Positions 8,197 through 20,992 of a DNA stretch of 24,179 nt are shown here, piece after piece. Every line of letters starts with the position of its first letter. The first letter of the stretch is position 1. Location of the stretch: assembly GCA_028710695.1 (NCBI GenBank), contig JAQTTP010000011.1, forward strand, positions 1 through 24,179, read 5' to 3'. Below the pieces are notes generated by a model. The model was not told the DNA's origin. It searched no databases and saw nothing but the letters and a program-made list of their open reading frames with translations. The position numbers and the translations under genes are program-made. Source of the DNA: Candidatus Iainarchaeum sp. GTDB taxonomy: Archaea > Iainarchaeota > Iainarchaeia > Iainarchaeales > 0-14-0-20-30-16.

Positions 8197-11100
8197 TTAA
8201 TATAATCTCTTCACAACTTCTTCTACAACTTCTTCTGGGAACTCTTCTTTATCCAGAACTTGTCTTATTTCTTCTTTTGTGTATTTGGCTTTTACTGGTT
8301 TAAGTTTGTTTACTAGCTCTTCGATTTTGTCTTTGTATTTAGAATAAACATCGCCTTCAAAATTGGTTTTTATTAATGCTTTCTTTTTGTCATCTAAACT
8401 TAATTCGTTGTGGCTCTCTTCCTTTATCTGTTTATCCTTAACTTCTACTTTTTCTCTCATTGCGGAAATCTTAGACTCCAAAACCCTGATCTTTTGCTCT
8501 AACTCAGTTTTCTGTTTCTGGAATTCTTCTTGAGTTATTTTCTGTTGGAACATATCTCTTGTTAATTGTGATAAAGTTTTCTTCGCAGTTTCCAGTTCAG
8601 TTTCATATTCTTCTATGCTCTTTCCTTTTTGGGCTTTGTGCAAAATCTTTCTTACTCTCCAATAAATTATTCCAGCAATTATTGCTCCAATTATTACTAA
8701 TAAAATAATCAGCCAAATAGTTGCAGAGAACAAGGGGCTCACAAACCCAAGATCTTTTTCTACATTTACGGTATTTCCCAGATCATCTTCTCCAGAAAAA
8801 TTAATTGAGGCATTTCCAAATAATGGAATTCCATAATCTGCCTCATAAATTCCATCCGTATTTTTTTCGAATAAAACATTCTCATCATCTACTGCTAAAG
8901 AAATTGTATTTGCATCATAGCTCAGCCCATTTTCATAATTTATCCTCACTTTCAAATTTGTTTGGAGATAACTTCCATCCTCTCCAGGATTAACCATTTC
9001 AATATTCAATTTATTGCTTAGCTTGAACTCTTTTGTTTTCTTTGCACTTACTAGAACCCCATTATATTCTGCTTGTGCAACAAAATCAATTGATTTTTTG
9101 TCGCCAGTCTTTTCATTAAGCGCATATAGCCCAATGAACCTGTTTTTATTAGCAGTATCTTGTGTTAACTGTATTTGTTTTCCATCATCCAAATAAACAA
9201 ATAAAGGTTTTATTTCTTTTTCACTTTTTATCTTTACTTCTATTGGAATTTCTTGGCCATAATTTATTGTAGTTATTTTTTCATTTGGTTCTACAATTTC
9301 CAAATCAATTATTCCAGTTACATTTTTTACTTCATATTCTTTTGATTTGTATGTTTTAGAAACATAATTTGTGTATTTGTCTGTAACATCAAATTTGAAA
9401 TATAATATTCCTGTTTCAACATCTTTGTCGCTTATGGAATAATCCAAGTAGGCAATAAAACAAGTCTGCTCTTTTTCTAGAGAATATTCTTTCTTTTCAT
9501 ACCCTTGTAGAATAATTTTTCCGCCATTTATATCTGAAGAATAATTCTCGCTATCTTTATCTTTAAAACATACATTTACAGAGTTTATTTTTGAGCCCAA
9601 CGAAAAAGTTTCTTTTCCGGGTTCTCCGGCAAAAGAAGTATCCAATTCCAATATCGGAACAAGCTCTTGTGGCACAATATATATTTCCACACTTTTCTTA
9701 GATTTTAGGTTCAAGCCACCAGTAGACACGCTTGCAGATACTTCTACAAAGTTCTTTGCATCATTGTAAATATTTCCAATAAAGGTTCCCTCATAATTTC
9801 CACTTGATGTCTCTGGCAGAGAAAACACAACACCATCTTTTAGTTGTGCAGTAACTGTTGCGCTAGTAATTGCTTTTCCAGCATTGTCCAATAATTGCAC
9901 ACGGATTTTATATTCATCGTTCCTTAAAATGTCCGCATTCACAAGGGGCTCTTTAATTATAATATTCAGATTCGCACTTACAATATCAATACTCTTTGTT
10001 TTTTCTATCCAACTTCCTTTGTCATCTTTTACTTTCAACTTGATTTCATAGTCTCCTTCTTTCTGGTATGTGTGTTTCAAGCTTTTTGTTGTCCCTTTTG
10101 TTGTACTATCACCGAAATCCCATTCATAGGAAACAGTTCCAGCACCAGAATAAGTATAATCTGCTGTAAGAGTAACCTCTTCCCCTACTTGCGCTTTATC
10201 TGGACCAGATATTGTTAGTGTAGAGAAATACCCTTGCACAGTACCTTTGTCAGCAAAGGCCTCATCTCCTGCTTGATTATTGTTCGGAGTTATAGAGCAC
10301 TGAACTTCTGTTCCTTGCGGGCATAAAGCAGGAGTACACTTAAACTTGGATGCAATTTCCCCAGTTTTCACAACCCCATTCAAGTACCATTTATACCCCA
10401 AGCTTATTCCAGAAGATGGATCATCAGCATCACTCTTTCCAGAGTTCTGACAAGAAATTTCAGAATCAGGATATGGTGTAGTAGGACTAACTGCAACACC
10501 AGTAACTGTTGGCTTTGAGTCAATTATAGAAAAATCAAGTTCTTTAGTTGAACTTAAAATAGTATCATTACATACAATAGTCACTTTCTTTGAGCCTGTA
10601 CCCAAATCTAAAGCATTAAATGGGCCAAGTTCCATTTCTTTTTGTTCCCAGGTTGCACCACTATTATTTGTTGCGGATTTAGTTCCAATTGTTGCAGTGC
10701 AAGTAAGTGCACTTCCACCTGTATCATCTGTATTGTCTTTCACATTCAAAAGAACATTAAAAGAATGATTCTTCCCTACCTGTGTTACTCCTTCAGACCC
10801 GCTATTTATATCATAAATCACTGGAGTTTCCATTACTGGATTTCCAGAAAGAACTGATATTGTTTCAGACCCAGACCAATTAACTACTGGATCTGGGTTA
10901 CATACCCCCATTTTCATTTCACAAACAGCCCAATTAAAAACATCTTGTTCTCGGGCGGTATTACTTTGTTTAAGGTGGAAAGTTAGGGTGAAATCTCCTG
11001 AAATCGCCACTTGCTTAATTCCAAAACTATTGAAATATTTATTATTAGGATCATAACAAGCTTTATTATCACAATTAGAAATATTCTCAGAAACACCAAC

Positions 11101-11346
11101 TTTATCTAAATCAGTAGGTAAAGAAAAATAATTTTGATTATCGGAAATTGTTAGCCGATATTTAACTGGATCTGCAATAAATCCATCAAAACTAAACTTC
11201 ACAGTTACATCTTGAGAGTCTGTAAAGATTTGGTTTCCGTTGGATGGATTTAGAACTTCTGAGGAAATTAGGGAAACTGAGAAAGAAATGCCTATTAAGA
11301 ACCAAAAAAAGAATAAGAAAAATGACTTTATAATCAAATTTGTCAT
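8197..11346 (-). CDS. Large type I membrane surface protein (1049 aa) with PKD/Ig-like domains and a charged coiled-coil cytoplasmic tail
   Basis: N-terminal signal/anchor (FFLFFFWFLIGISFSVSLI). PKD signature YEWDFGDSTTKGTTKSLKHTYQKEGDYEIKLKVKDDKGS. Long beta-rich ectodomain. C-terminal TM (IWLIILLVIIGAIIAGIIYW RVRK), then a K/E-rich heptad-like tail of about 150 aa. A TATA-like TTTAAATA is centred about 26 nt upstream of the ATG. Confidence 0.8.
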   Translation of the reverse strand: MTNLIIKSFFLFFFWFLIGISFSVSLISSEVLNPSNGNQIFTDSQDVTVKFSFDGFIADPVKYRLTISDNQNYFSLPTDLDKVGVSENISNCDNKACYDPNNKYFNSFGIKQVAISGDFTLTFHLKQSNTAREQDVFNWAVCEMKMGVCNPDPVVNWSGSETISVLSGNPVMETPVIYDINSGSEGVTQVGKNHSFNVLLNVKDNTDDTGGSALTCTATIGTKSATNNSGATWEQKEMELGPFNALDLGTGSKKVTIVCNDTILSSTKELDFSIIDSKPTVTGVAVSPTTPYPDSEISCQNSGKSDADDPSSGISLGYKWYLNGVVKTGEIASKFKCTPALCPQGTEVQCSITPNNNQAGDEAFADKGTVQGYFSTLTISGPDKAQVGEEVTLTADYTYSGAGTVSYEWDFGDSTTKGTTKSLKHTYQKEGDYEIKLKVKDDKGSWIEKTKSIDIVSANLNIIIKEPLVNADILRNDEYKIRVQLLDNAGKAITSATVTAQLKDGVVFSLPETSSGNYEGTFIGNIYNDAKNFVEVSASVSTGGLNLKSKKSVEIYIVPQELVPILELDTSFAGEPGKETFSLGSKINSVNVCFKDKDSENYSSDINGGKIILQGYEKKEYSLEKEQTCFIAYLDYSISDKDVETGILYFKFDVTDKYTNYVSKTYKSKEYEVKNVTGIIDLEIVEPNEKITTINYGQEIPIEVKIKSEKEIKPLFVYLDDGKQIQLTQDTANKNRFIGLYALNEKTGDKKSIDFVAQAEYNGVLVSAKKTKEFKLSNKLNIEMVNPGEDGSYLQTNLKVRINYENGLSYDANTISLAVDDENVLFEKNTDGIYEADYGIPLFGNASINFSGEDDLGNTVNVEKDLGFVSPLFSATIWLIILLVIIGAIIAGIIYWRVRKILHKAQKGKSIEEYETELETAKKTLSQLTRDMFQQKITQEEFQKQKTELEQKIRVLESKISAMREKVEVKDKQIKEESHNELSLDDKKKALIKTNFEGDVYSKYKDKIEELVNKLKPVKAKYTKEEIRQVLDKEEFPEEVVEEVVKRLY

Positions 11347-11398: not shown

Positions 11399-12220
11399 GT
11401 GGAGTTTAAAGTAATAATTAATGAGAACGCAACTAAATTAGATGCAATTTGGAGCGGTCTAGGGCCATACTCACAAAGATTCGTAGCAAGATCTTCTATT
11501 TTATTTCAATTTGATAAGAACATGTCAAAACTATTACTTACAAGAGATCTAATAATGGGCTCTTGGCCTGAGTTTATGTCCCATTATTTATTCAATAAAA
11601 AAACAACTGACACAAATACAAAACTTGCAAAGAAACTATTAGATAAAACAAAAGTTCCAGATTGGAACCTAAAAAGAAAAATACTGAATTCAAAAAAGCA
11701 AGAGTTAGAAATAATTATTTTAAAAAACTTAGAAAAAATTAATTTTTTCTTCAAAAATATTATTGGGCATGAAATAGATAATGTATCTATTTTTTTGGCA
11801 TATTCTGCAGATGGAGAATTTGGCTTTGGGGGTTGTTGTTTGCCAACAAAGGAACCAGCAATAATGCTACGATTGTGCAAGTCCTCAAAAATAACTAACA
11901 TTTCTATAATTGTTCATGAATTAATGCATCTCGCAATAAGAAATTGTAACGAAAGAAATAAACTTAAAACGATTGGGCACGAAGCAGAGGAAGCACTATT
12001 TGATTTGCTTTGTGCAATGTTCCAAAATGAAAACAAGATAGATTATAAAAAAACCATAAAACAAGACATTGCTGATAGAGATGGATACCACAAAAAATAC
12101 ATTTATGAAATCTATAAAATGATAAAACCAATTTTAAACGGTAAAGAAGACCTTGTTTGGAAATATATTGATTGGGAAAAGTTAAAAGCCATTAAAAAAG
12201 GTGAGAAAAATCATAACTAA
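11399..12220 (+). CDS. Hypothetical protein with an HExxH zinc-metallopeptidase motif
   Basis: IIVHELMHLAI, followed by GHEAEEALFD as a possible third ligand region. GTG start as listed, so the start is uncertain. Confidence 0.5.
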   Translation: MEFKVIINENATKLDAIWSGLGPYSQRFVARSSILFQFDKNMSKLLLTRDLIMGSWPEFMSHYLFNKKTTDTNTKLAKKLLDKTKVPDWNLKRKILNSKKQELEIIILKNLEKINFFFKNIIGHEIDNVSIFLAYSADGEFGFGGCCLPTKEPAIMLRLCKSSKITNISIIVHELMHLAIRNCNERNKLKTIGHEAEEALFDLLCAMFQNENKIDYKKTIKQDIADRDGYHKKYIYEIYKMIKPILNGKEDLVWKYIDWEKLKAIKKGEKNHN

Positions 12221-12806
12221 TTTTGACACTCTAATTAAATTACCAATACCCTGCAAAAAAATACTTTCAAAAGAAATAACAGAAAAAAACATTAAAAATT
12301 TAAAAAAACTTTTTGAATTAACCAAAGCTAACGGAAAATTAGGACTAAAATATAGTATGAAATCTTATGATACCTATTCTAACTGCAAATTACCAACAGT
12401 GGTTTGGAAAACAAAATCAGGACATTGCTTTGAACTGTCACTATTTTTACTGGCTTGTTTAAAATATTTGGGCTTTAATGCCTATTATTATGAAATGCCA
12501 AACTTCAAAAAGTGGGATCATGCGTGTGTTTTAATAAAAGTGAACGGTAAATCAATATCTGTGGATCTTGGAAGAAAAATATTTAATGCAAAATACAAAG
12601 GATATAATAGACTAACTAAAAAACAAACTCTCGGGAACTATTTTATAAATTGTGCACATATGCTTTATCCTTGGAAATGTAAATCTAAAAAATTAAGTAA
12701 AAAAGACAACATAACACAAAGACAAAAAGCAATTAAGTTTGCAAAACTAGGTCTAAAATATTATCCAAATTCGAAAAGAGGAAAAATTATACTTACGGGA
12801 GATTAA
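12201..12806 (+). CDS. Transglutaminase-like cysteine-protease-fold protein
   Basis: Candidate Cys-His-Asp core: SGHCFELSLFLLACLKYLGFNAYYY, then WDHACVLIKVNGKSISVD. GTG start overlapping the preceding gene by 20 nt. Confidence 0.55.
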   Translation: MRKIITNFDTLIKLPIPCKKILSKEITEKNIKNLKKLFELTKANGKLGLKYSMKSYDTYSNCKLPTVVWKTKSGHCFELSLFLLACLKYLGFNAYYYEMPNFKKWDHACVLIKVNGKSISVDLGRKIFNAKYKGYNRLTKKQTLGNYFINCAHMLYPWKCKSKKLSKKDNITQRQKAIKFAKLGLKYYPNSKRGKIILTGD

Positions 12807-12820
12807 AAGTAAAGGAAGAG

Positions 12821-13576
12821 TTACTTAACAACATCTAATTCTTTTTCGTGTTTTTTTGCGAATTTGTAAGCCCATTTTAAGTAATCGTCAAAAGTTTTGC
12901 CTTTTTTGTAAATATCTTCTGCATATTTATCTTCAAAATAATGTTGTATTGTTCTTTTTCCTATTCTATTCTTATAAAAACAATCATAACTATAATGTGG
13001 TCCGGGGAGAATTTTATTAAATTTTTTGTCATTTAAAATCACAGAAACCAAAATTTCAGAGAGAATCCATTCAATATGTGGCCCGCCATATTTTTGTTTT
13101 GAAACATCAGGGAATAGTTCTCCAAACTTTTTGAAATATAGCAGATGAGTTATCTCGTGTGCAGCAATTCCAAAAACTCTTTGTGTGGGCCAATCGTATG
13201 GAATATAAAAATTCATTTTCTCTATGTTTCGTGGAAATACTTTGCATAAAGAAAGATACGCTTCAATTTTTTCTGGGTTCTTAAACCAAGGGGTGCCAAT
13301 CACATCAGACAAATTAGTCATAAACTCTTTTTGTATTTTGTTCCATTCTTTTTGATAATGACCAACATTAACTTTTGTTTTTCTTCGTTTAGTCTTCCAC
13401 TCACCTTTTAACCAGCCAGTTATATCTAACTTTGGTTCTTTAAGAATAGAGTAACTATCTAAAAAACGAAACTTAAAAGACTGATTACTGTGTTGCAAAA
13501 AATGATTAAAAGCCCAGATTTCTTTCTTTATTGGAACTATTTTGAATTCAACTTTTGGATAAGACATAAAGATCAC
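12821..13576 (-). CDS. HExxH motif protein (putative zinc metallopeptidase), last gene of the candidate RiPP operon
   Basis: GIAAHEITHLLYF. GTG start forms a GTGA overlap with the kinase stop; an alternative ATG lies at 13567. Only 14 nt separate its stop from the convergent gene ending at 12806. Confidence 0.5.
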   Translation of the reverse strand: MIFMSYPKVEFKIVPIKKEIWAFNHFLQHSNQSFKFRFLDSYSILKEPKLDITGWLKGEWKTKRRKTKVNVGHYQKEWNKIQKEFMTNLSDVIGTPWFKNPEKIEAYLSLCKVFPRNIEKMNFYIPYDWPTQRVFGIAAHEITHLLYFKKFGELFPDVSKQKYGGPHIEWILSEILVSVILNDKKFNKILPGPHYSYDCFYKNRIGKRTIQHYFEDKYAEDIYKKGKTFDDYLKWAYKFAKKHEKELDVVK

Positions 13577-14493
13577 TTTTTATGCCCTAATATTTTTATT
13601 TCTCCAGGATTTAAATTAGGGGTCATTTTGTCACCAGTTTTTAAAAATTTTGTTCTGTTTTTACTGCTCAATTTAAAAATTAAAAAGATTATTCTATTTT
13701 CATATTGTTTTTCCCGTATTTTACTATTTGATTTTATGCAACGTGTGTACATTTCCATAAGAAAATATATTGAATAAAATAAGTATAAATCATTAGTTGA
13801 AATTAATTTATTTAGTTCTTTTTTTCCATAGGCCTCAAAGAAAGCATCAGTAATTATTGACATTTCAAAGTTGCCGTGGCTTCGCACAAACATTTTAGAC
13901 AATATATTAGTTAATTCAAAATATTTATCCCCGACAATAAATTTATCCCAGTCTATGATTTTTAGTTTTTCTCGGTGTAGAATTATATTTTTGGGGGAGA
14001 AATCGCCATGTAATAGCCTTTTTTGAGGGCTGTAATTTATAAACCTTTCTCGCCATATTTTTTTTAATATTTTTATATACTTTTTGTTTTCGGGGATACA
14101 AATTTCGTCAAGCTTATAGTTTAGTAAATCAGACCAGGATTTAAATTTGTTGCCTTTATATAAATAACGTTTATGGGTAATGTTATGTATTTTTCTGTAC
14201 ACCACACCCATTTTTTTAAACACTCTGATCTCATCTTTTAAACTTAGTAAATTCAAATTTAGTTGGTTTCCTTCAATAAAAGGGTATGTTATGGCATTAG
14301 TTGAAATTATTATATTGGGCGTAAAAAATGGTTTAAATAATGGAAAAAAAGCATAAATCTTTTTAATATTTAAGGGGGGGCCAAATGTTTCTCTATATAC
14401 ATAGTTCTTATTTTTAAATTTAAAGAGATATACATTATTGGCAAAGCCGTTTGCAATATATTCTTTATCTATAACATTTATTTTTGTTTGCAA
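13573..14493 (-). CDS. Aminoglycoside-phosphotransferase (APH) / choline-kinase-fold kinase
   Basis: Catalytic loop LLHGDFSPKNIIL (H-G-D-x4-N) and metal-binding IIDWDKFIVGD. N-terminal GFANNVYLFKF nucleotide-loop-like segment. TTG start with GGAGG 6 nt upstream. Confidence 0.75.
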   Translation of the reverse strand: MQTKINVIDKEYIANGFANNVYLFKFKNKNYVYRETFGPPLNIKKIYAFFPLFKPFFTPNIIISTNAITYPFIEGNQLNLNLLSLKDEIRVFKKMGVVYRKIHNITHKRYLYKGNKFKSWSDLLNYKLDEICIPENKKYIKILKKIWRERFINYSPQKRLLHGDFSPKNIILHREKLKIIDWDKFIVGDKYFELTNILSKMFVRSHGNFEMSIITDAFFEAYGKKELNKLISTNDLYLFYSIYFLMEMYTRCIKSNSKIREKQYENRIIFLIFKLSSKNRTKFLKTGDKMTPNLNPGEIKILGHKK

Positions 14494-15055
14494 TAAATCC
14501 CTCCACCGCTTTAGAAATTTTATTGCTGTCCGCAGGCAGCAACAAAGATAACCTCATCCACAACATTTTTCTCCACTCATATAGTTTGGCAATTTGTGAA
14601 ATGTGATCCGTAGTTTCTATAAACTTACCTGGCAAGTTAAGTCCTTGCAGTTTTTTACATACTGTTTTGCCAGCCAAAAGAAAATTTTTATTTTTGTAAT
14701 CTCTGGGACTTAACCAGCCATAATAAAATCCAAATTCGATGATTTGCAAATCGTTATTTTGATCTATATCTTTTGCTTTTTTTATTGCACTTAAATGCAC
14801 ACTCAGTATTTTCCTAGAAATTACTTCATCTTCAAAATTGGGCACCATTTTTATTTCTTTTTTCAGATATTGTAATGCAAAAATGCTTTCTAACATATAG
14901 TTTAAATATATTTGTAATTTCTTATTTTCGGCATACTCTTTTGTATTTAAATATTCTTCGTAGCCAAATGCATTTTCGATAAGGCCTTTTGCTTTTTTTA
15001 GAGAATATCCTTTTTTTATTTCAATTTCACTAGACAATTGTGAATATATGTCCAT
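14465..15055 (-). CDS. Hypothetical protein (about 196 aa, mostly helical by composition)
   Basis: No recognisable motif. I prefer the ATG at 15055 (MDIYSQLSSE...): GGAGG lies 7 nt upstream and the start is 1 nt after the upstream stop. The listed start is 15109. Confidence 0.5.
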   Translation of the reverse strand: MDIYSQLSSEIEIKKGYSLKKAKGLIENAFGYEEYLNTKEYAENKKLQIYLNYMLESIFALQYLKKEIKMVPNFEDEVISRKILSVHLSAIKKAKDIDQNNDLQIIEFGFYYGWLSPRDYKNKNFLLAGKTVCKKLQGLNLPGKFIETTDHISQIAKLYEWRKMLWMRLSLLLPADSNKISKAVEGFIANKNKCYR

Positions 15056-15056
15056 A

Positions 15057-15476
15057 TTAGGGCCTCCGTAATCGTTCAATAACATGTGGAAATATGTTCG
15101 CAGCGTCAATCTTTTTTTCTCTAGGTAGTCCGTGCAACTTATTTTTTAGGCCTGGTTCGTCATAAAACATTTTTTGAATAATTCTTACTATTCGCAATCC
15201 AAAAATATTATTCCCATATTTTTTGCTTCTACTGAAAAACATTATCTTCCCATTAACTTCCTTGACCCATCCGCCCCATACAAATTGTTCTGTGTCTTTA
15301 GAACCAACAGATTTATGTAATATTTCAGTATGATTATCTCCTTTATTACCCGTCATGACCACTATCGTGTTATTTTTTGGCAAATACAAAAAAATAAATT
15401 TTTGGGGGGCTTCAGTAACAAATAAATTAAGTTTTATTTTATAACCCAGATAATTAAACTCTTTAATAAGATTCAT
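15057..15476 (-). CDS. Hypothetical protein (about 139 aa)
   Basis: No recognisable motif. I prefer the ATG at 15476 (MNLIKEFNY...), which has GAGGT 8 nt upstream, over the listed TTG at 15485. Overlaps the radical SAM gene 3' end. Confidence 0.5.
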   Translation of the reverse strand: MNLIKEFNYLGYKIKLNLFVTEAPQKFIFLYLPKNNTIVVMTGNKGDNHTEILHKSVGSKDTEQFVWGGWVKEVNGKIMFFSRSKKYGNNIFGLRIVRIIQKMFYDEPGLKNKLHGLPREKKIDAANIFPHVIERLRRP

Positions 15477-17013
15477 ATTTTTCAACCTCTGGACAACGTG
15501 GATCTAAAATACCTTTATTTTTTTTATAAAATGTTAAACAACCCAGACCACAGCAGGATTTGTGTTTACAACTTTTGCAATGACTGTTAGTTAAACCTTG
15601 TTTAAAAAACGTTGGTTTTTTTAACAATATTTCTTCTAGGCTATTAGTTTTTATATTTCCAATTGCATATTTTTCAGGCAATAACAAACAACCATTTACT
15701 TCCCCAAAGGCATTAATGCTAATACGCCTGTTAAAAGCACTACAAGAAATGTCAGACCGCATTTCTGTAGTAGGTAAACCAAAACGAAATGCAAACATTA
15801 CAGTGTCAAATAATATTGCAATATCGGTGTGATGCACAGTTAATTCATTGTAAATTTCAATATATTGACTATAGGGAATATGTAAATTTTTTGCATTTAA
15901 GCCAGACCCTATTGGAAGAAAATAGTTCAATTTTATTTTTTTTACTCCGACCTCTACTAAATTATCAACTAATTGCATAATATTTTTTTTATTAATTGCA
16001 TTTACTACAATTACGATAGTAGGATTCAAGCCATTATTTATTATCTTTTTTATATTCTCTAAAACTCTGTTTTTTTTATCTACACCTCTTAAAAACAGAA
16101 AGTCTTTTTCGTCTATTGAATCAAAACTAACCCCAAAATTATTAATTTTTTTTAGAACGCTTATGATTTTTTTATTAATAATTGTTCCATTAGTATTCAA
16201 ATGTATTGCAAATCCTAAAGACTTAGCATAATTGACAATTTTATAAAAATCAGGGTGCAATGTTGGTTCTCCACCAGTAATTGATACAAAACAAAGACCC
16301 TTTTTTTTTGCATCATTAAAAACTGTTTTTATATATTTAAAATCCAGATTATTGCCCTCTTTTTTATTTATATTGGCATAACAGAATTTACAGTTCATAT
16401 TACAATGAGTAGTTATTTGCATATCAAGAATGTCTGGAGAATTAATATCAGATTCATATAAAAAAAATTTCTTTTTAGTTATAGAAAAACAAAAAATGCC
16501 ATCAGTTATAAGATTAATTATAATCTTCTTGGCCGCCAAGCCATATTTTTTATAAAGGTCTTTAATTTTTGTTGTCTGTAAATCTTTAACCAACCGAAAA
16601 CTATTTTTATCTAATTTAATCTTCTTTGTATCTTTATAAATCAAATAATAATCTTTATTTTTCTTAAACAATTTAATAAAGTTTTTTGTTGGAACCAAAT
16701 AATTATCATCAGTAAATATAATCTTACTCTTCTCTATCAACACGTACGCAGAATCTAGAAAATAATCATTAATATTTAATCCAATTATACTGGGGATGTT
16801 AAATTCTCTACTTACAATAGCAACATGGCTTAATATGCCGCCTTCTTTTAAAACTATTCCTTTAATAAATGGGAAATAGTCAAGAATGGAATTAATACTT
16901 CTTTCTAAGTAAATGATTTTTCCGGCATATTTTTGAGGGTTTAATTGCGAGTTATATTTTTTTAAAACCCCAAAAATGGTTCCGCTATAATTTAGTTGCC
17001 CTTCAAAGATCAT
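15463..17013 (-). CDS. Fusion enzyme: PEP-utilizer mobile (phosphohistidine swivel) domain + PqqD/RRE-like segment + radical SAM + SPASM domain
   Basis: aa about 8-100: GKIIYLERS...IKGIVLKEGGILSHVAIVSREFNIPSIIG (PEP-utilizers swivel domain with the conserved SH His). aa about 118-175: DYYLIYKDTKKIKLDKNSFRLVKDLQTTKIKDLYKKYGLAAKKIIINLITDGIF (RRE-like). CNMNCKFC (C-x3-C-x2-C, nt 16381..16404) and ITGGEPTLHP. C-terminal seven-Cys SPASM pattern CSAFNRRISINAFGEVNGC ... CKSCKHKSCCGLGC. Confidence 0.85.
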   Translation of the reverse strand: MIFEGQLNYSGTIFGVLKKYNSQLNPQKYAGKIIYLERSINSILDYFPFIKGIVLKEGGILSHVAIVSREFNIPSIIGLNINDYFLDSAYVLIEKSKIIFTDDNYLVPTKNFIKLFKKNKDYYLIYKDTKKIKLDKNSFRLVKDLQTTKIKDLYKKYGLAAKKIIINLITDGIFCFSITKKKFFLYESDINSPDILDMQITTHCNMNCKFCYANINKKEGNNLDFKYIKTVFNDAKKKGLCFVSITGGEPTLHPDFYKIVNYAKSLGFAIHLNTNGTIINKKIISVLKKINNFGVSFDSIDEKDFLFLRGVDKKNRVLENIKKIINNGLNPTIVIVVNAINKKNIMQLVDNLVEVGVKKIKLNYFLPIGSGLNAKNLHIPYSQYIEIYNELTVHHTDIAILFDTVMFAFRFGLPTTEMRSDISCSAFNRRISINAFGEVNGCLLLPEKYAIGNIKTNSLEEILLKKPTFFKQGLTNSHCKSCKHKSCCGLGCLTFYKKNKGILDPRCPEVEKYESY

Positions 17014-17908
17014 ATAATGCGCCCCTTAGGAAATCAAATAATTTTTTGTTATTATATATGTGTCTTTGTTTTTTAAAAGAAAGCATACTTTTTATTATAG
17101 AGTCTTTTTTAAGGCCATATTCAAGCTTTAAACCGTTAATATTAGATAAGGCTTGATCTTGAATCACTAATCCAAGGTTATATTTAGTAATAATTTGAGT
17201 ATTAAGGGCTTGCTCAAGATTTGCAGGATGTATGTAAATATATGGTTTATTGAGATACATGCTTTCAGAAAGAGAACACAGCCCCGGATGTGTTACAATT
17301 ATTTCATTTTTTGCAATAATTTGTGAAAAATGCTTACGGCTCTTACTAAATACTAGCTGTGATTGAAGTATATTTTCTTTATCCCATATTGCGTTTTTGG
17401 TTTTATAACTGCCAATAATTGCCAAGCCAGAGCCATTTGTTTTTTTAATTTTTGTTATATAATTATCAACAAAAAGAAATTTATTGTATTTGTCGCCCCA
17501 GGGCGTTTTATTTTTTGTCAATGATGACAAAAAACAGAAATCGGATTCCCTTATGCCCTTCTTAAATAAATTAAGGCGCTCTTGAAATAAATTATGCTTA
17601 AATAGGTAATTCCAATAATCCCCCAAATTATCTATAAAAATGTCTCTTCCACTAGTAGGGATATTTCTTGGGTCTATTATATGTATTACAATGTCTTTTT
17701 TAGTTACTTTATAATTTGGGTCATAACATAAATGATGGCAGTAATTTTTTTTTATAAAATCATGTCTTTCTATAGAAGGGGTTTTTAAAATACATTTTCT
17801 ATTTGGAAATAAGATCAGTAAATTTTGAACTATTTGACCCAACATTACTGCAGGACCAAATCCGTTCATTGATAAAAAACACACAATTGCCATACAGGTC
17901 TTATCCAT
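17003..17908 (-). CDS. GT-B-fold glycosyltransferase-like protein (GT1/GT28 MurG-like C-terminal signature)
   Basis: IVTHPGLCSLSESMYLNKPYIYIHPANLEQALNTQIITKYNLGLVI resembles the THGG-x-x-S-x-x-E ... P ... D/E-Q-x-x-N-A ... G donor-binding region of GT1/GT28 enzymes. The start ATG overlaps the stop of the upstream 40-aa ORF (ATGGATAA). Confidence 0.6.
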   Translation of the reverse strand: MDKTCMAIVCFLSMNGFGPAVMLGQIVQNLLILFPNRKCILKTPSIERHDFIKKNYCHHLCYDPNYKVTKKDIVIHIIDPRNIPTSGRDIFIDNLGDYWNYLFKHNLFQERLNLFKKGIRESDFCFLSSLTKNKTPWGDKYNKFLFVDNYITKIKKTNGSGLAIIGSYKTKNAIWDKENILQSQLVFSKSRKHFSQIIAKNEIIVTHPGLCSLSESMYLNKPYIYIHPANLEQALNTQIITKYNLGLVIQDQALSNINGLKLEYGLKKDSIIKSMLSFKKQRHIYNNKKLFDFLRGALYDL

Positions 17909-18023
17909 CTTGAGAAGGATCTTGACAATGTGGTGCAGAACAATAATTTTCTTTTTTATATGTTAGTTTATTATTTTCTTCGTCTTTTTTTATTTTGCTC
18001 TTTTTTATAACTTTTTTATCCAT
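17901..18023 (-). CDS. Small ORF (40 aa), candidate RiPP precursor peptide: MDKKVIKKSKIKKDEENNKLTYKKENYCSAPHCQDPSQDG
   Basis: Hand-translated; it is below the ORF-track length cutoff. A perfect AGGAGG at 18031..18036 lies 7 nt upstream of the ATG (18021..18023). The stop overlaps the next gene start by 8 nt. The ORF fills an otherwise unexplained 126-nt gap in a tightly packed operon. The Lys-rich N-terminus and Cys-containing C-terminus resemble a leader/core layout. Confidence 0.5.
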   Translation of the reverse strand: MDKKVIKKSKIKKDEENNKLTYKKENYCSAPHCQDPSQDG

Positions 18024-18030
18024 TTTTATT

Positions 18031-18036
18031 CCTCCT
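18031..18036 (-). promoter_or_regulatory. Shine-Dalgarno site (AGGAGG) for the 40-aa ORF, overlapping the TAG stop of the upstream surface-protein gene
   Basis: The minus strand reads GTT AAT TAG GAGG AATAAAA ATG. This is the same 6-8 nt spacing seen at other internal genes in this window. Confidence 0.6.
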
Positions 18037-20920
18037 AATTAACAGTATAAATTGCATAACCTAAATCATCTTTGTTATTTATGTTTCCGGTCATTGGTTC
18101 GTCTATAAGGCCAAATACTACGCTTGCATTTTGACCTTTAGTTTGAACTGAAAATGCATTTGCTGTAGATTGACCTATCTGGTTTGAATTTGAACCTATT
18201 GCATAGGGAACATAATTATAAGTCTTACAAGTTGGGCTGTTTACTTTCGCATAACTTGTTTCTGTGTATGCAATAAAATCTGCGCCAACTAGTTCAGAGA
18301 TTATCATACAAACTTGCTGGTTGTACAAAGGAACTGCAAAGTAATTTAACATACTTACTTGTAAAGAATATGTTTTATTTTTATTCAAAGCTGTGCCGTC
18401 TGCAGGGTTAAATACGGCAGATAATCCTTTTGATACATCCACTGCTTCAAAGCTTGCGCCAGTTTCATAACCAGCAATTACTTTGCTTTCATCAGTATTC
18501 ATCCATGACAAATATGCTTTTCCTTTTGATAATAAGAAATATTCACCATCTGCACCAAATTCTGTTGGCATAATCTCTTGCTCTAGAACTAATTCATCTA
18601 AAGCAGGAACATCTACTAATTGGCAGTAAACATTCTGATAAAGGACTTGGCCATTAGACATTGGTTTTAATAAGCCGTTCTGAGAAACATAACATAAATT
18701 CAAATCATTCAAAGGAACATCGTATAGATTTGTGATGTGGACTTTGATTTTTAATTTATTATCTTTTGGAACTTTTCCATATAATGTAACACCCCAAAAA
18801 CCTGCACCATCATTATCGCCCATGTCTTGCCACATGGATACTAAACCATTTCCTGCCGCATAAAAGATGTCTTTGGTTTCTATTTGCTTAGAGTCTAATT
18901 GCTGGCCGTTAAGCATTAACATTATGTTGTAAATCTTTTCTGTGTTCTCAACTGTTGTGTGGAACTCGCTCTCTTTTGTGGAGTTAGGCTCGATCTTGGG
19001 AATAAGTTCAGTAATTGTTGTGTGGCCTTCTGGCTGACCATCAAAGATAACTAGCTCTGTTGAGCTTGCTGTTACTTCTATTCCCTCTAAATAGATGCTC
19101 AGATTGTTGGTAACATAAACTTGGAAGTAAACTTCGTAATCTAATGGAACTGTGTGAGGAACATCTACTGTTGCAGTTACGTCAGCAGGAGATACTTTTG
19201 CTAAACGGAAGATATTGGATTCTACTGTTTTATCGCCATCAGAAGCTGTTACTTTGACATCGGAGTAGCCTTGTGATGTAATGTTACAATACAATACTTT
19301 GTTTTCAATATTACAAATTGCCGGGCCATTTAAAACTAAATAATTGTAAGATAGTTCTTGACCTTCAGAATCAGAGAACATACCTAAAAGATCTTTTGAA
19401 AAAGATAAATTTGAACCTGTGGAAGTTTTACCAATAATTTTGCCAGAGAATACCGGTGCCAAGTTATCTTTAGACCAGGATACAGAGATTTCTTTATCTA
19501 CTTCATACTGGCCATCAGAAGCAGAAACTGACAAAGTAGTGGAAATTGGGTATATGGTGGTTGAACAGGATAGGTTAGGTCCTACTAGTCCACAGTTTAA
19601 ACCACCATTATCTTTTATTTCGAAATATAAAGTAGAGGAAGGGTTGTCCACATCAGACACAAAATTCGCTAAGTTTAGATTCAAGGTTTGGCCTTCCTCC
19701 AAGTTATTAATTGGAATGGAGTTCCAAGAAGGAGCATCATTTACATTTGAAACATTTACTTTTAGATCACCAAAGGCAGTATTGCCTTGTGGGTCTTCTG
19801 CTTTAATCATAACAACAAAAGCACCATAAGCATCCTTTACAAGAGAGCAGTTTAGTGTGAAATTATCTACTTCACAAGATATTCCACTTGCGGGAGCAAT
19901 ATAATCAACTGATAAAGATAATTCGTTTGTAGTGTTATTTGGATCTTGAACATAAGGTAACAAGTTAATTGATCCTATTTGTGTGTCTTCCTGAACATTT
20001 ATTGTTGGAAGATCTGTAAAATAAGGAGAGCTACTGTTTTTTGTTATCTCAATTGGTGCTTGCTCGTATTGATTTGTGACTATGTCCTTTACTTCCAAAG
20101 TATAATATTTTGTGCCTTCTGAAATCTGGTTACAAGTTAGAACTGACCCAGAGATATTACAATTTGCGGGGTTCTCTAACAATTTGTAAGTTAATTTGCC
20201 TAAGGCGAAATCGTAATAGTCAATATAATTTTTTAAATCAACTAAAATGCTTGATTCATTTGTTTGAATAATTACTGGATCAATAGAAACCTCTTTTATT
20301 GGATAAAGAGTAACTTTTAAGCTCCTCAAAAAAGGGCTTAGATAATCGTGATCTGTGCTAAGGGTTATTTCTACATTTGCTGAAGATGTCTTTCCTAAGA
20401 AAGCATAGTTGTTGTATTGGGAGTCATTAACTTTAAAGCTTACTTGTGTTCCTTCAAGAACTAAAGCATCTTCTTCAAGTTTTACTGCGTAGATTAAGGA
20501 TAAAGAATCGAATTTCAGGTCTTCTAATGTAAAGGAGCCTTTTGGGTTATATTCCATATAGGCCTTTTTAGAATCTTTTGAAGTATAAGATAGTTTTATT
20601 CCGTGCTCTTCTTGGCTTAAACTAGACCAGTTTCCCGAGTAAAATAGATATTGGCCATCGGGAACAAAAGAGAAATTAAATTCCTTTGGGCTTGAGGCGG
20701 GCAAAGGCATTGCATCAGGCAGATATCTTTGTATAGGAATGTCTCTCTGAGGGATATATTGTGGTACCTTGTGAGGAACCTTTGGAATGAATCCATCAGC
20801 ATAAGTAAGGGAGAAAATCAAGAAAAATGCGAAAAATAATAGTATAAAAGATAGGATTTTATGGATTGGTACTTTCATGGGGCGTTTTACCGCTGACCCA
20901 TTCCGATATAGAACTCCCAT
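18035..20920 (-). CDS. Large secreted/surface protein (about 960 aa) with repeated Ig/cadherin-like beta domains
   Basis: Signal peptide KILSFILLFFAFFLIFSLTYADG. Repeated beta-rich modules, including a cadherin-like boundary NVSNVNDAPSW. No C-terminal TM. Start uncertain: the ATG at 20920 lies about 27 nt downstream of TTATAAAT (leaderless candidate); the ATG at 20878 and the listed 20989 are alternatives. Confidence 0.75.
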   Translation of the reverse strand: MGVLYRNGSAVKRPMKVPIHKILSFILLFFAFFLIFSLTYADGFIPKVPHKVPQYIPQRDIPIQRYLPDAMPLPASSPKEFNFSFVPDGQYLFYSGNWSSLSQEEHGIKLSYTSKDSKKAYMEYNPKGSFTLEDLKFDSLSLIYAVKLEEDALVLEGTQVSFKVNDSQYNNYAFLGKTSSANVEITLSTDHDYLSPFLRSLKVTLYPIKEVSIDPVIIQTNESSILVDLKNYIDYYDFALGKLTYKLLENPANCNISGSVLTCNQISEGTKYYTLEVKDIVTNQYEQAPIEITKNSSSPYFTDLPTINVQEDTQIGSINLLPYVQDPNNTTNELSLSVDYIAPASGISCEVDNFTLNCSLVKDAYGAFVVMIKAEDPQGNTAFGDLKVNVSNVNDAPSWNSIPINNLEEGQTLNLNLANFVSDVDNPSSTLYFEIKDNGGLNCGLVGPNLSCSTTIYPISTTLSVSASDGQYEVDKEISVSWSKDNLAPVFSGKIIGKTSTGSNLSFSKDLLGMFSDSEGQELSYNYLVLNGPAICNIENKVLYCNITSQGYSDVKVTASDGDKTVESNIFRLAKVSPADVTATVDVPHTVPLDYEVYFQVYVTNNLSIYLEGIEVTASSTELVIFDGQPEGHTTITELIPKIEPNSTKESEFHTTVENTEKIYNIMLMLNGQQLDSKQIETKDIFYAAGNGLVSMWQDMGDNDGAGFWGVTLYGKVPKDNKLKIKVHITNLYDVPLNDLNLCYVSQNGLLKPMSNGQVLYQNVYCQLVDVPALDELVLEQEIMPTEFGADGEYFLLSKGKAYLSWMNTDESKVIAGYETGASFEAVDVSKGLSAVFNPADGTALNKNKTYSLQVSMLNYFAVPLYNQQVCMIISELVGADFIAYTETSYAKVNSPTCKTYNYVPYAIGSNSNQIGQSTANAFSVQTKGQNASVVFGLIDEPMTGNINNKDDLGYAIYTVN

Positions 20921-20943
20921 ACTTATATATATATGAAGGATAG

Positions 20944-20951
20944 ATTTATAA
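20944..20951 (-). promoter_or_regulatory. TATA-box-like element (TTATAAAT on the minus strand) upstream of the surface-protein / peptide operon
   Basis: Centred about 27 nt upstream of the ATG at 20920. The same octamer occurs at the same distance from the SPOUT gene ATG (22037..22044). Confidence 0.4.
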
Positions 20952-20992
20952 CCCTTATGTATTAACAATCCTAACTGAGAAGCCAACAAAGG

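Follow-up and report, generated by a model that had tools for sequence, protein, structure and literature searches.

We analysed a 24,179-nucleotide stretch of a Candidatus Iainarchaeum sp. genome (GenBank assembly GCA_028710695.1, contig JAQTTP010000011.1; hereafter "the window", with positions counted from its first letter), concentrating on a 40-aa open reading frame (ORF) that a preliminary description, made from the letters of the DNA, had put forward as a candidate precursor peptide. Our principal finding is that this ORF probably, with a likelihood that we put at about 75%, is translated and encodes the precursor, or substrate, of a peptide-modification cassette of six genes that is conserved in DPANN archaea. 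The peptide gene comes first in this cassette and is followed by genes for a GT-B-like glycosyltransferase (protein B), a four-part radical S-adenosylmethionine (SAM) enzyme (C), two proteins with no assigned function (D and E) and an APH-family kinase (F). The candidate-precursor proposal is supported by a reading frame, ribosome-binding site (RBS) and stop codon kept at eight loci, by synteny, and by an enzyme structure that resembles SuiB, SkfB and CteB. The chemistry of the modification appears much less certain than the precursor role. Homologous loci and proteins are cited below by our own numbers, prefixed L and P respectively. The peptide gene and its signals are placed as follows.

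17901..18023, minus strand: peptide gene (40 aa, starting at ATG) for the putative precursor or substrate (product MDKKVIKKSKIKKDEENNKLTYKKENYCSAPHCQDPSQDG), from the ORF list and eight homologues.
17967..18023, minus strand: residues 1-19, a hypervariable Lys/Glu/Asn/Asp-rich N-terminal segment (spacer or leader-like), from alignments in which the length changes of homologues are in frame.
17904..17966, minus strand: residues 20-40, the conserved block LTYKKENYCSAPHCQDPSQDG, from the alignment of eight homologues.
18031..18036, minus strand: Shine-Dalgarno-like AGGAGG, ending 7 nt before the peptide ATG.

Read directly, the minus strand of the window includes TAGGAGGAATAAAAATG and AATTAGGAGGAATAAAAATGGATAAAAAAG. 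The AGGAGG shares its AG with the TAG stop (18035..18037) of a 984-aa surface-protein ORF upstream of the peptide; the 40-aa ORF, the RBS and this overlap with the upstream stop had all been reported in the preliminary description and are borne out by the window sequence. Its statement that the ORF is unannotated was mistaken, as GenBank already carries it as a hypothetical protein (MDD4984052.1, PHH82_04430). With 80 ORFs of at least 30 aa within 11 kb of the window at 30% GC, a lone 40-aa ORF is not significant by itself, and we judge this one to be a real gene because it is conserved. We found no second copy of the peptide gene elsewhere in the window, and no Rfam family matched at its locus. 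A TTTATA box at 18046-18051 (minus strand), 23-28 nt upstream of the peptide ATG and still inside the surface-protein gene at its 3' end, is a possible archaeal TATA box that would give the peptide operon its own promoter; such a transcript would exclude the AGGAGG.

A word-based search with the single peptide matched only itself, and a profile built on four peptides was required to recover the family. This profile retrieved eight distinct peptides (P0001 and P0122-P0128) from metagenomes, with lengths of 39-45 aa when counted from the RBS-supported start and C-termini that all fit YKKE[KN][YF]C[STA]APHCQ[DE]xxQD[GA]-stop. Twelve residues are invariant in 8/8 (Y22, K23, K24, E25, C28, A30, P31, H32, C33, Q34, Q38 and D39), both Cys among them. 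Position 29 is Ser, Thr or Ala (Thr in three homologues and Ala in P0123, the latter in two assemblies), position 37 is S, Y, A, G or Q, and no Ser or Thr is invariant among the eight aligned peptides, compared with the 12 other residues that are. An RBS-like motif (GGAGG, GAGGTG or GGGGG) stands 5-9 nt before the ATG, and a stop codon directly after QD[GA], at every one of the eight distinct loci. For the final 20 codons, pairwise comparison of the eight loci gives a mean proportion of synonymous differences (pS) of 0.64 against 0.13 for nonsynonymous differences (pN), a pN/pS of about 0.2, and synonymous variation is such that more than one codon is used at 9/12 invariant residues. The excess of pS over pN, together with this codon variation, indicates that selection acts on the amino-acid sequence and not on the DNA or RNA. 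By these sequence comparisons, the peptide ORF is a genuine conserved small gene under strong purifying selection over its C-terminal ~21 residues. Frame-breaking indels in relatives, which the preliminary description had named as the finding that would speak against the gene, were looked for: frame, RBS and stop are kept at all eight loci, and the length changes are in frame. Its expectation that a leader would be better conserved than a core is, however, reversed in these alignments, where the ~20 residues at the N-terminus are hypervariable and the ~19-21 at the C-terminus hardly change; the border between the two lies at ~19-21 and not at residue 26, where the leader/core boundary had been drawn. 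No NCBIfam or Pfam model matched the peptides at E values up to 5.

Gene order was read only as far as each contig extends, and all six genes are complete only in the window and in L004; with that scope, the order is constant over about a dozen contigs, running peptide, B (~300 aa), C (~520 aa), D (~140 aa), E (~195 aa) and F (~290 aa). Similar small ORFs beside homologues of the enzyme gene at 15463..17013, a search that the preliminary description had proposed, were indeed seen: a called 41-45-aa gene lies directly upstream of the glycosyltransferase-like gene at the orthologue contigs that reach that far, and the peptide gene directly precedes the glycosyltransferase-like and radical-SAM genes in the window, L001/2, L003, L004, L007-L014 and L016. 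Since the genes upstream of the peptide vary by locus (the window has a surface protein there, L012 an acetyltransferase, and L001 and L007 have others) and nothing related follows kinase F in L004 or L005, the conserved unit comprises six genes with the peptide first. Genes for export, immunity or proteolysis are not among the conserved members of the cassette.

In the window, the peptide ORF and the 301-aa glycosyltransferase-like ORF downstream overlap by 8 nt (17901..17908). The overlap of the two genes, as first described, therefore stands for the ORFs, but the ATG in question lies within the conserved Asp-Gly codons (GAT GGN) and is largely a by-product of them. Because the glycosyltransferase-like gene starts 11-14 nt past the peptide stop in L007, L012, L019 and L021, and because the frame of the overlapping ATG in L019 hits a stop after six codons, the true start of this gene in the window may be the ATG at 17893 (MAIVCF...).

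The third gene encodes the enzyme from which much of the functional argument derives, whose parts are listed below; RRE denotes a recognition element for a RiPP (a peptide synthesised ribosomally and modified post-translationally), PEP denotes phosphoenolpyruvate, and pLDDT is the predicted local distance difference test score of an AlphaFold2 (AF2) model.

15463..17013, minus strand: 516-aa four-part enzyme (PEP-utilizers swivel, RRE-like segment, radical-SAM core, SPASM), from Pfam and the AF2 model.
16774..16923, minus strand: PEP-utilizers mobile (phospho-His swivel) domain, residues ~31-80 (PF00391, E 3.8e-10).
16483..16701, minus strand: RRE-like segment, residues ~105-177 (three helices after four strands in the model, pLDDT ~77-95).
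15982..16419, minus strand: radical-SAM core, residues 199-344 (PF04055, E 3.6e-25; C204-x3-C208-x2-C211).
15493..15744, minus strand: SPASM domain (PF13186, residues 424-482), with C424-x12-G437-x4-C442 ... C479-x2-C482-x5-C488-x3-C492 ... C507.

The swivel domain scores 39.7 bits with PF00391 against a cut-off of 23.1, and its motif GGxLSH63xAIVxRE is kept in 4 full-length orthologues. Each of C204, C208 and C211 is at least 90% conserved in the enzyme alignment, and the complete 7-Cys SPASM pattern is invariant in 7 orthologues. The AF2 model of the enzyme, built from a 47-row alignment, has a pLDDT of 83.5, with the swivel domain poorly modelled. Compared with the PDB by Foldseek, the model ranks SuiB first, then SkfB and CteB, then anSME, TigE and PqqE. 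The SuiB match (E 1e-20 to 2e-20, identity 17-18%) takes in 430-460 aligned columns against targets of 425-440 residues, one alignment having 453 columns on a 439-aa target, and spans the SuiB RRE; SkfB and CteB are aligned over almost their full length, and the CteB alignment covers its RRE. The alignment to the StsB hidden Markov model (HMM) begins at enzyme residue 113 and so takes in the StsB N-terminal domain. Residues ~105-177, whose modelled topology is that of an RRE, are accordingly predicted to form an RRE-like domain, and the enzyme shows the motifs and the predicted structure of an RRE-bearing radical-SAM/SPASM peptide maturase. The radical-SAM core also scores against families that do not act on peptides (NirJ2 at 115 bits, MoaA at 97, viperin at 82-97); PADLOC returned only a generic likeness of this core to viperins and no defence-system call.

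The remaining proteins of the cassette, and an accessory neighbour, are these.

17003..17908, minus strand: protein B, ~300-aa GT-B-like glycosyltransferase (GT28_C / Glyco_trans_1_3-like nucleotide-sugar domain), start probably ATG 17893.
15057..15485, minus strand: protein D, 142 aa, function not assigned, conserved in the cassette, with invariant residues that include N51, T53, G71, G72 and W73.
14465..15055, minus strand: protein E, ~196 aa from ATG 15055, function not assigned, predicted all-alpha, elsewhere fused to a swivel domain.
13573..14493, minus strand: protein F, APH-family kinase (PF01636, E 7.3e-9; conserved HGDxSxxN and IDWD), the last cassette gene in L004 and L005.
12821..13576, minus strand: 251-aa HExxH (HEITH) protein, accessory, overlapping the kinase stop by 4 nt.

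Protein B matches the nucleotide-sugar-binding half of GT-B glycosyltransferases. The matches of the window copy are sub-threshold; its orthologues match PF04101 in 6/6 (best E 2.5e-6) and PF13528 in 5/6, and a profile of B matches GT1 enzymes in the PDB at E 5.6e-5. For protein D, Pfam matches are at noise level only (Ntox43 in 3/6, Ocnus in 1/6). We considered D as a PHPT1/Janus-like phospho-His phosphatase, reject this for want of support and retain it as a lead only: PF05005 reaches E 0.11 in one orthologue, with the three weak Ntox43 matches in others, and hhalign against human PHPT1 aligns the His at a probability of 0.2%. In four separate assemblies (L003, L007, L009 and L010) D is called as 95 aa (e.g. 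L007:6780-7067) with a ~135-nt gap before E, so either its C-terminal third is dispensable or a frameshift is conserved. Profile searches of the PDB gave nothing above noise for D, for E or for the HExxH protein. The HExxH protein, possibly a metallopeptidase from its motif and best regarded as accessory, matched nothing in Pfam, NCBIfam or the PDB; a homologue 48% identical to it lies among the system genes in L028. Membership of this protein in every cassette was rejected, nothing homologous to it following the kinase in L004 or L005.

Protein E is also met in a second arrangement. P0012/P0129 (313/317 aa; L028:6720-7685) consist of a swivel domain fused to protein E, with 59-60% identity to the N-terminus of C and 44% to the E of the window, and this fusion speaks for a joint function of the swivel domain and E. 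Among the NCBIfam models that P0012 matches weakly are PEP synthase, PTS enzyme I, RedH and Rph. In L028 the fusion gene has NUDIX and HExxH genes before it and a truncated APH-like ORF (161 aa) after it.

Three other explanations of the peptide have to be weighed. The best of them holds that the peptide is made but left unmodified, as a small accessory subunit (a Cys/His metal-binding or redox mini-protein, a chaperone or a regulator), the enzymes acting on a sugar, lipid or nucleotide; we consider this improbable. A C-terminal stretch of 19-21 aa that is invariant throughout is what a protein-protein or metal-binding interface would give, C-x-A-P-H-C supplies Cys/His/Cys ligands, the cassette is without a conserved protease or exporter, and the scores of the radical-SAM core against NirJ2, MoaA and viperin would suit a small-molecule substrate. 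Yet the top full-length structural matches, RRE-like module included, are the peptide maturases SuiB, SkfB and CteB, and it is not evident what an RRE-like domain would do for a small-molecule substrate; the small first gene directly before the enzymes is the canonical position of a precursor, and a folded subunit is unlikely for a peptide of 40 aa with a hypervariable, low-complexity N-terminal half.

We give distinctly less credence to a lanthipeptide-like route, in which the APH kinase would phosphorylate Ser29, elimination would yield dehydroalanine (Dha) and Cys addition a lanthionine, with radical-SAM and glycosyltransferase tailoring. The cassette does conserve an APH-family kinase with an intact catalytic motif, D and E could in principle include a lyase, and position 29 is Ser or Thr in 7/8 homologues. 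Against this, P0123 has Ala29 in both of its assemblies, position 37 varies freely, no Ser or Thr is invariant, and no HopA1/LanY-like or LanC-like domain was detected in the cassette proteins, although a remote homologue is possible. Ser phosphorylation and elimination to Dha, as suggested in the preliminary description, is thus unsupported, and we reject it as conserved chemistry because residue 29 is Ala or Thr in relatives. Finally, the ORF could act as a spacer or as an upstream ORF with a regulatory role, its translation and not its product mattering, through coupling to, or control of, the glycosyltransferase gene. We find this scarcely credible: the ORF is close to or overlaps the next gene and its N-terminal half is variable and of low complexity, but pN/pS is about 0.2 with synonymous change near saturation in the last 20 codons, 12 residues never vary among loci that share only 45-58% enzyme identity, the gap to the next gene differs by locus so that a coupling geometry is not conserved, and there is no Rfam element at the position.

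Several observations count against the precursor-peptide reading itself. A variable N-terminus with an invariant C-terminus is atypical of leader/core RiPPs, and the family is tiny, with 8 variants and none in the GTDB representative genomes. The enzyme falls below the curated cut-offs of all 25 listed NCBIfam maturase families, so that its chemistry is not transferable by homology. No PqqD Pfam match was obtained on the excised 96-aa RRE-like segment, and the RRE assignment therefore depends on the structure model and on the extent of the HMM and structural alignments. In none of the cassette proteins was an ATP-grasp (PPDK_N) or a PEP-binding TIM barrel found that could partner the swivel domain, no fold or significant family match was detectable for D and E, and the AF2 model of the swivel-E fusion, made from a 3-row alignment, has a pLDDT of 43 and is unusable. 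A protease or exporter is not conserved, the HExxH protein being present only in the window and L028.

Taking the peptide to be the substrate, a mechanism can be outlined in conditional terms. We infer that the conserved block divides into a recognition motif (hydrophobic-x-YKKE) and a core (CxAPHCQ..QDG). The RRE-like domain would bind the hydrophobic-x-YKKE stretch as a beta-strand, YKKE perhaps being the recognition sequence, and the radical-SAM/SPASM domain would then form one or two intramolecular cross-links within C[STA]APHCQ[DE]xxQD[GA]. The likeliest cross-link would be a thioether by which Cys28 and Cys33 are joined to a carbon on a residue close by, as in sacti- and ranthipeptides; the alternative would be a C-C bond through Tyr, His or Lys, as with SuiB, PqqE and MftC. 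The invariance of both Cys makes thioethers the leading candidate, being compatible with a thioether and not evidence for one; Cys may also be glycosylated, as the preliminary description had suggested. The GT-B enzyme (B) would add a sugar to the peptide; His63 of the swivel domain with E, and perhaps the APH kinase, could phosphorylate the peptide held by the RRE, or its sugar, most likely at the invariant Tyr22 or at an Asp/Glu carboxylate. The variable N-terminus would be removed last, possibly by the adjacent HExxH protein.

A more specific version of this scheme, which we offer tentatively and regard as doubtful in its entirety, couples radical-SAM cross-linking to a phosphoryl relay. 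The swivel domain, loaded via E and/or the APH-fold kinase, would phosphorylate or activate the RRE-bound peptide (e.g. at Tyr22, or at an Asp/Glu carboxylate for cyclisation), and what results would be a fixed 13-19-mer, cross-linked through Cys and phospho- and/or glyco-modified, that serves as a cofactor or a host-interaction signal in genome-reduced DPANN archaea. If this were true, the enzyme would be the first among RiPP maturases to have a swivelling phosphotransfer domain built in. Irrespective of the relay, a core that is invariant despite enzyme identities of 45-58%, in a cassette with no conserved exporter, immunity gene or protease, suggests a product with a fixed cellular partner; this speaks for a signalling or cofactor-like molecule and against an arms-race antibiotic, and suggests a physiological role (cofactor or signal) in very reduced genomes.

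We compared the cassette with the peptide-modification systems that it most resembles. Sactipeptide and ranthipeptide systems (CteB/CteA, SkfB/SkfA, StsB, PapB; SCIFF) likewise place a small Cys-containing precursor beside an RRE, radical-SAM and SPASM maturase, the enzyme model has CteB and SkfB near the top of its structural matches, and StsB, at 94.8 bits, is the best-scoring peptide-maturase HMM listed, ahead of the mycofactocin maturase (95.0) by E-value. In SCIFF precursors, too, the C-terminal region is highly conserved. Scores nevertheless lie far below the cut-offs of these families (score/cut-off: StsB 95/625, PapB 64/340, SkfB 69/300, AlbA 62/850), the peptide has 2 Cys in comparison with the six of SCIFF, no NCBIfam precursor model matched it, and those systems are without the swivel domain, GT-B enzyme, APH kinase, D and E that are all present here. 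Streptide (SuiB/SuiA, with a Lys-Trp C-C cross-link) shares a short precursor with a conserved core, and SuiB is the best solved-structure match; identity to SuiB is however only 17-18%, the conserved block has no Trp, and the accessory genes differ.

Mycofactocin (MftA-F) and PQQ (PqqA-E) resemble the cassette in an invariant precursor C-terminus with a less constrained N-terminus and in an RRE plus radical-SAM/SPASM maturase. As in the cassette, a glycosyltransferase (MftF) belongs to the mycofactocin cluster, and the cassette for its part conserves no exporter or immunity gene. The differences are that scores are well below cut-off (MftC 95 against 265, PqqE 61 against 381), that the peptide ends in QD[GA] without a C-terminal Gly-Val-Tyr or Glu-x3-Tyr, that no homologue of MftD, MftE, PqqB or PqqC and no partner oxidoreductase was identified, and that the glycosyltransferase is GT-B and not GT2. 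In its invariant core and its lack of exporter, immunity and protease genes, the cassette by analogy resembles PQQ and mycofactocin more closely than bacteriocin-type RiPPs.

Three further comparisons concern single components. The swivelling phospho-His enzymes (rifampin phosphotransferase; PigC/RedH; PEP synthase/PPDK) have the same PF00391 domain with a GGxxSHxAIVxRE motif, but the cassette swivel is fused to RRE-radical-SAM-SPASM or to E, with no ATP-grasp or TIM barrel detected. The dehydration systems of class V lanthipeptides and thioamitides (APH-like kinase plus HopA1-like lyase) share an APH-family kinase within a peptide-modification cluster; unlike them, the cassette has no invariant Ser/Thr in its peptide and no HopA1-like Pfam or NCBIfam match in D, E or the 251-aa protein. 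Glycocins use a SunS-type GT2 glycosyltransferase, whereas the families matched here are GT-B (GT28_C, Glyco_trans_1_3, PDB GT1).

Taken with these comparisons, the cassette is very likely a radical-SAM RiPP-type system with a new precursor family and an unusual maturase architecture, for which the modification chemistry outlined above is a proposal. Our literature searches returned nothing on an APHCQ motif, on PEP-utilizing/PF00391 with radical SAM (RiPP) or on PEP-utilizing with lanthipeptide, and no description of a swivel/RRE-radical-SAM-SPASM fusion. Few archaeal RiPPs have a characterised product, and one paper on archaeal genome mining reports none from DPANN archaea (PMC12144867). A compact, well-delimited six-gene cassette with an invariant substrate peptide is directly testable by heterologous expression, and a swivel domain fused both to RRE-radical-SAM-SPASM and, independently, to E could reveal a new coupling of phosphotransfer and radical peptide chemistry.

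The cassette is rare and occurs in DPANN archaea. When 1.84 billion representatives were searched exhaustively with a HMMER profile, two matched, both in the same peptide family, and no distant relatives appeared. A degenerate DNA pattern for KE[KN][YF]CxAPHCQ found 6 JGI metagenome contigs, of which only L019 (the P0128 locus) was new; neither the 185,579 species representatives of GTDB nor the viral contigs (IMG/VR) gave a match to this peptide motif. Among 5.8 billion clusters the 516-aa enzyme has a handful of orthologues (P0003-P0008, 42-58% identity), and in genomes and viral contigs its profile reached only distant radical-SAM proteins (23-28% identity).

Neighbouring sequence adds a few observations. 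In the window, the cassette region is flanked by two very large predicted surface proteins, the 984-aa one at 18035-20989 (minus strand), with a cadherin-like domain match, and a 1049-aa one at 8197-11346 (minus strand), a 30%-identical homologue of which lies at the start of L028; this shared homologue indicates regional synteny between the genomes of the window and of L028. Beside the cassette stand two convergent ORFs that matched no family, a 273-aa ORF (11399-12220, plus strand) with a HELMH motif and a 201-aa ORF (12201-12806, plus strand) with a weak transglutaminase-core-like match (E 0.03).

Arrangements at two other loci are also of note. L028:2822-5517 (JGI Ga0172371_10008785), from a related archaeon, is a second small-peptide/radical-SAM arrangement whose genes are a 35-aa ORF (MKLLDYSGQEREFNMKKIRSKKLVSKCPDSKGCAK, with C-x5-C near its C-terminus), a 265-aa unknown, a 337-aa radical-SAM/SPASM protein, a 159-aa unknown and a stand-alone 122-aa PEP-utilizers swivel protein. 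The pairing of swivel and radical-SAM/SPASM in two architectures in these archaea suggests, as far as gene content can tell, a wider theme. In L012:1134-4216, a 393-aa radical-SAM/SPASM gene lies upstream of the peptide on the opposite strand; on its flanks are two GNAT acetyltransferases and a Peptidase_M16 fragment, and this may represent a second peptide-modification locus.

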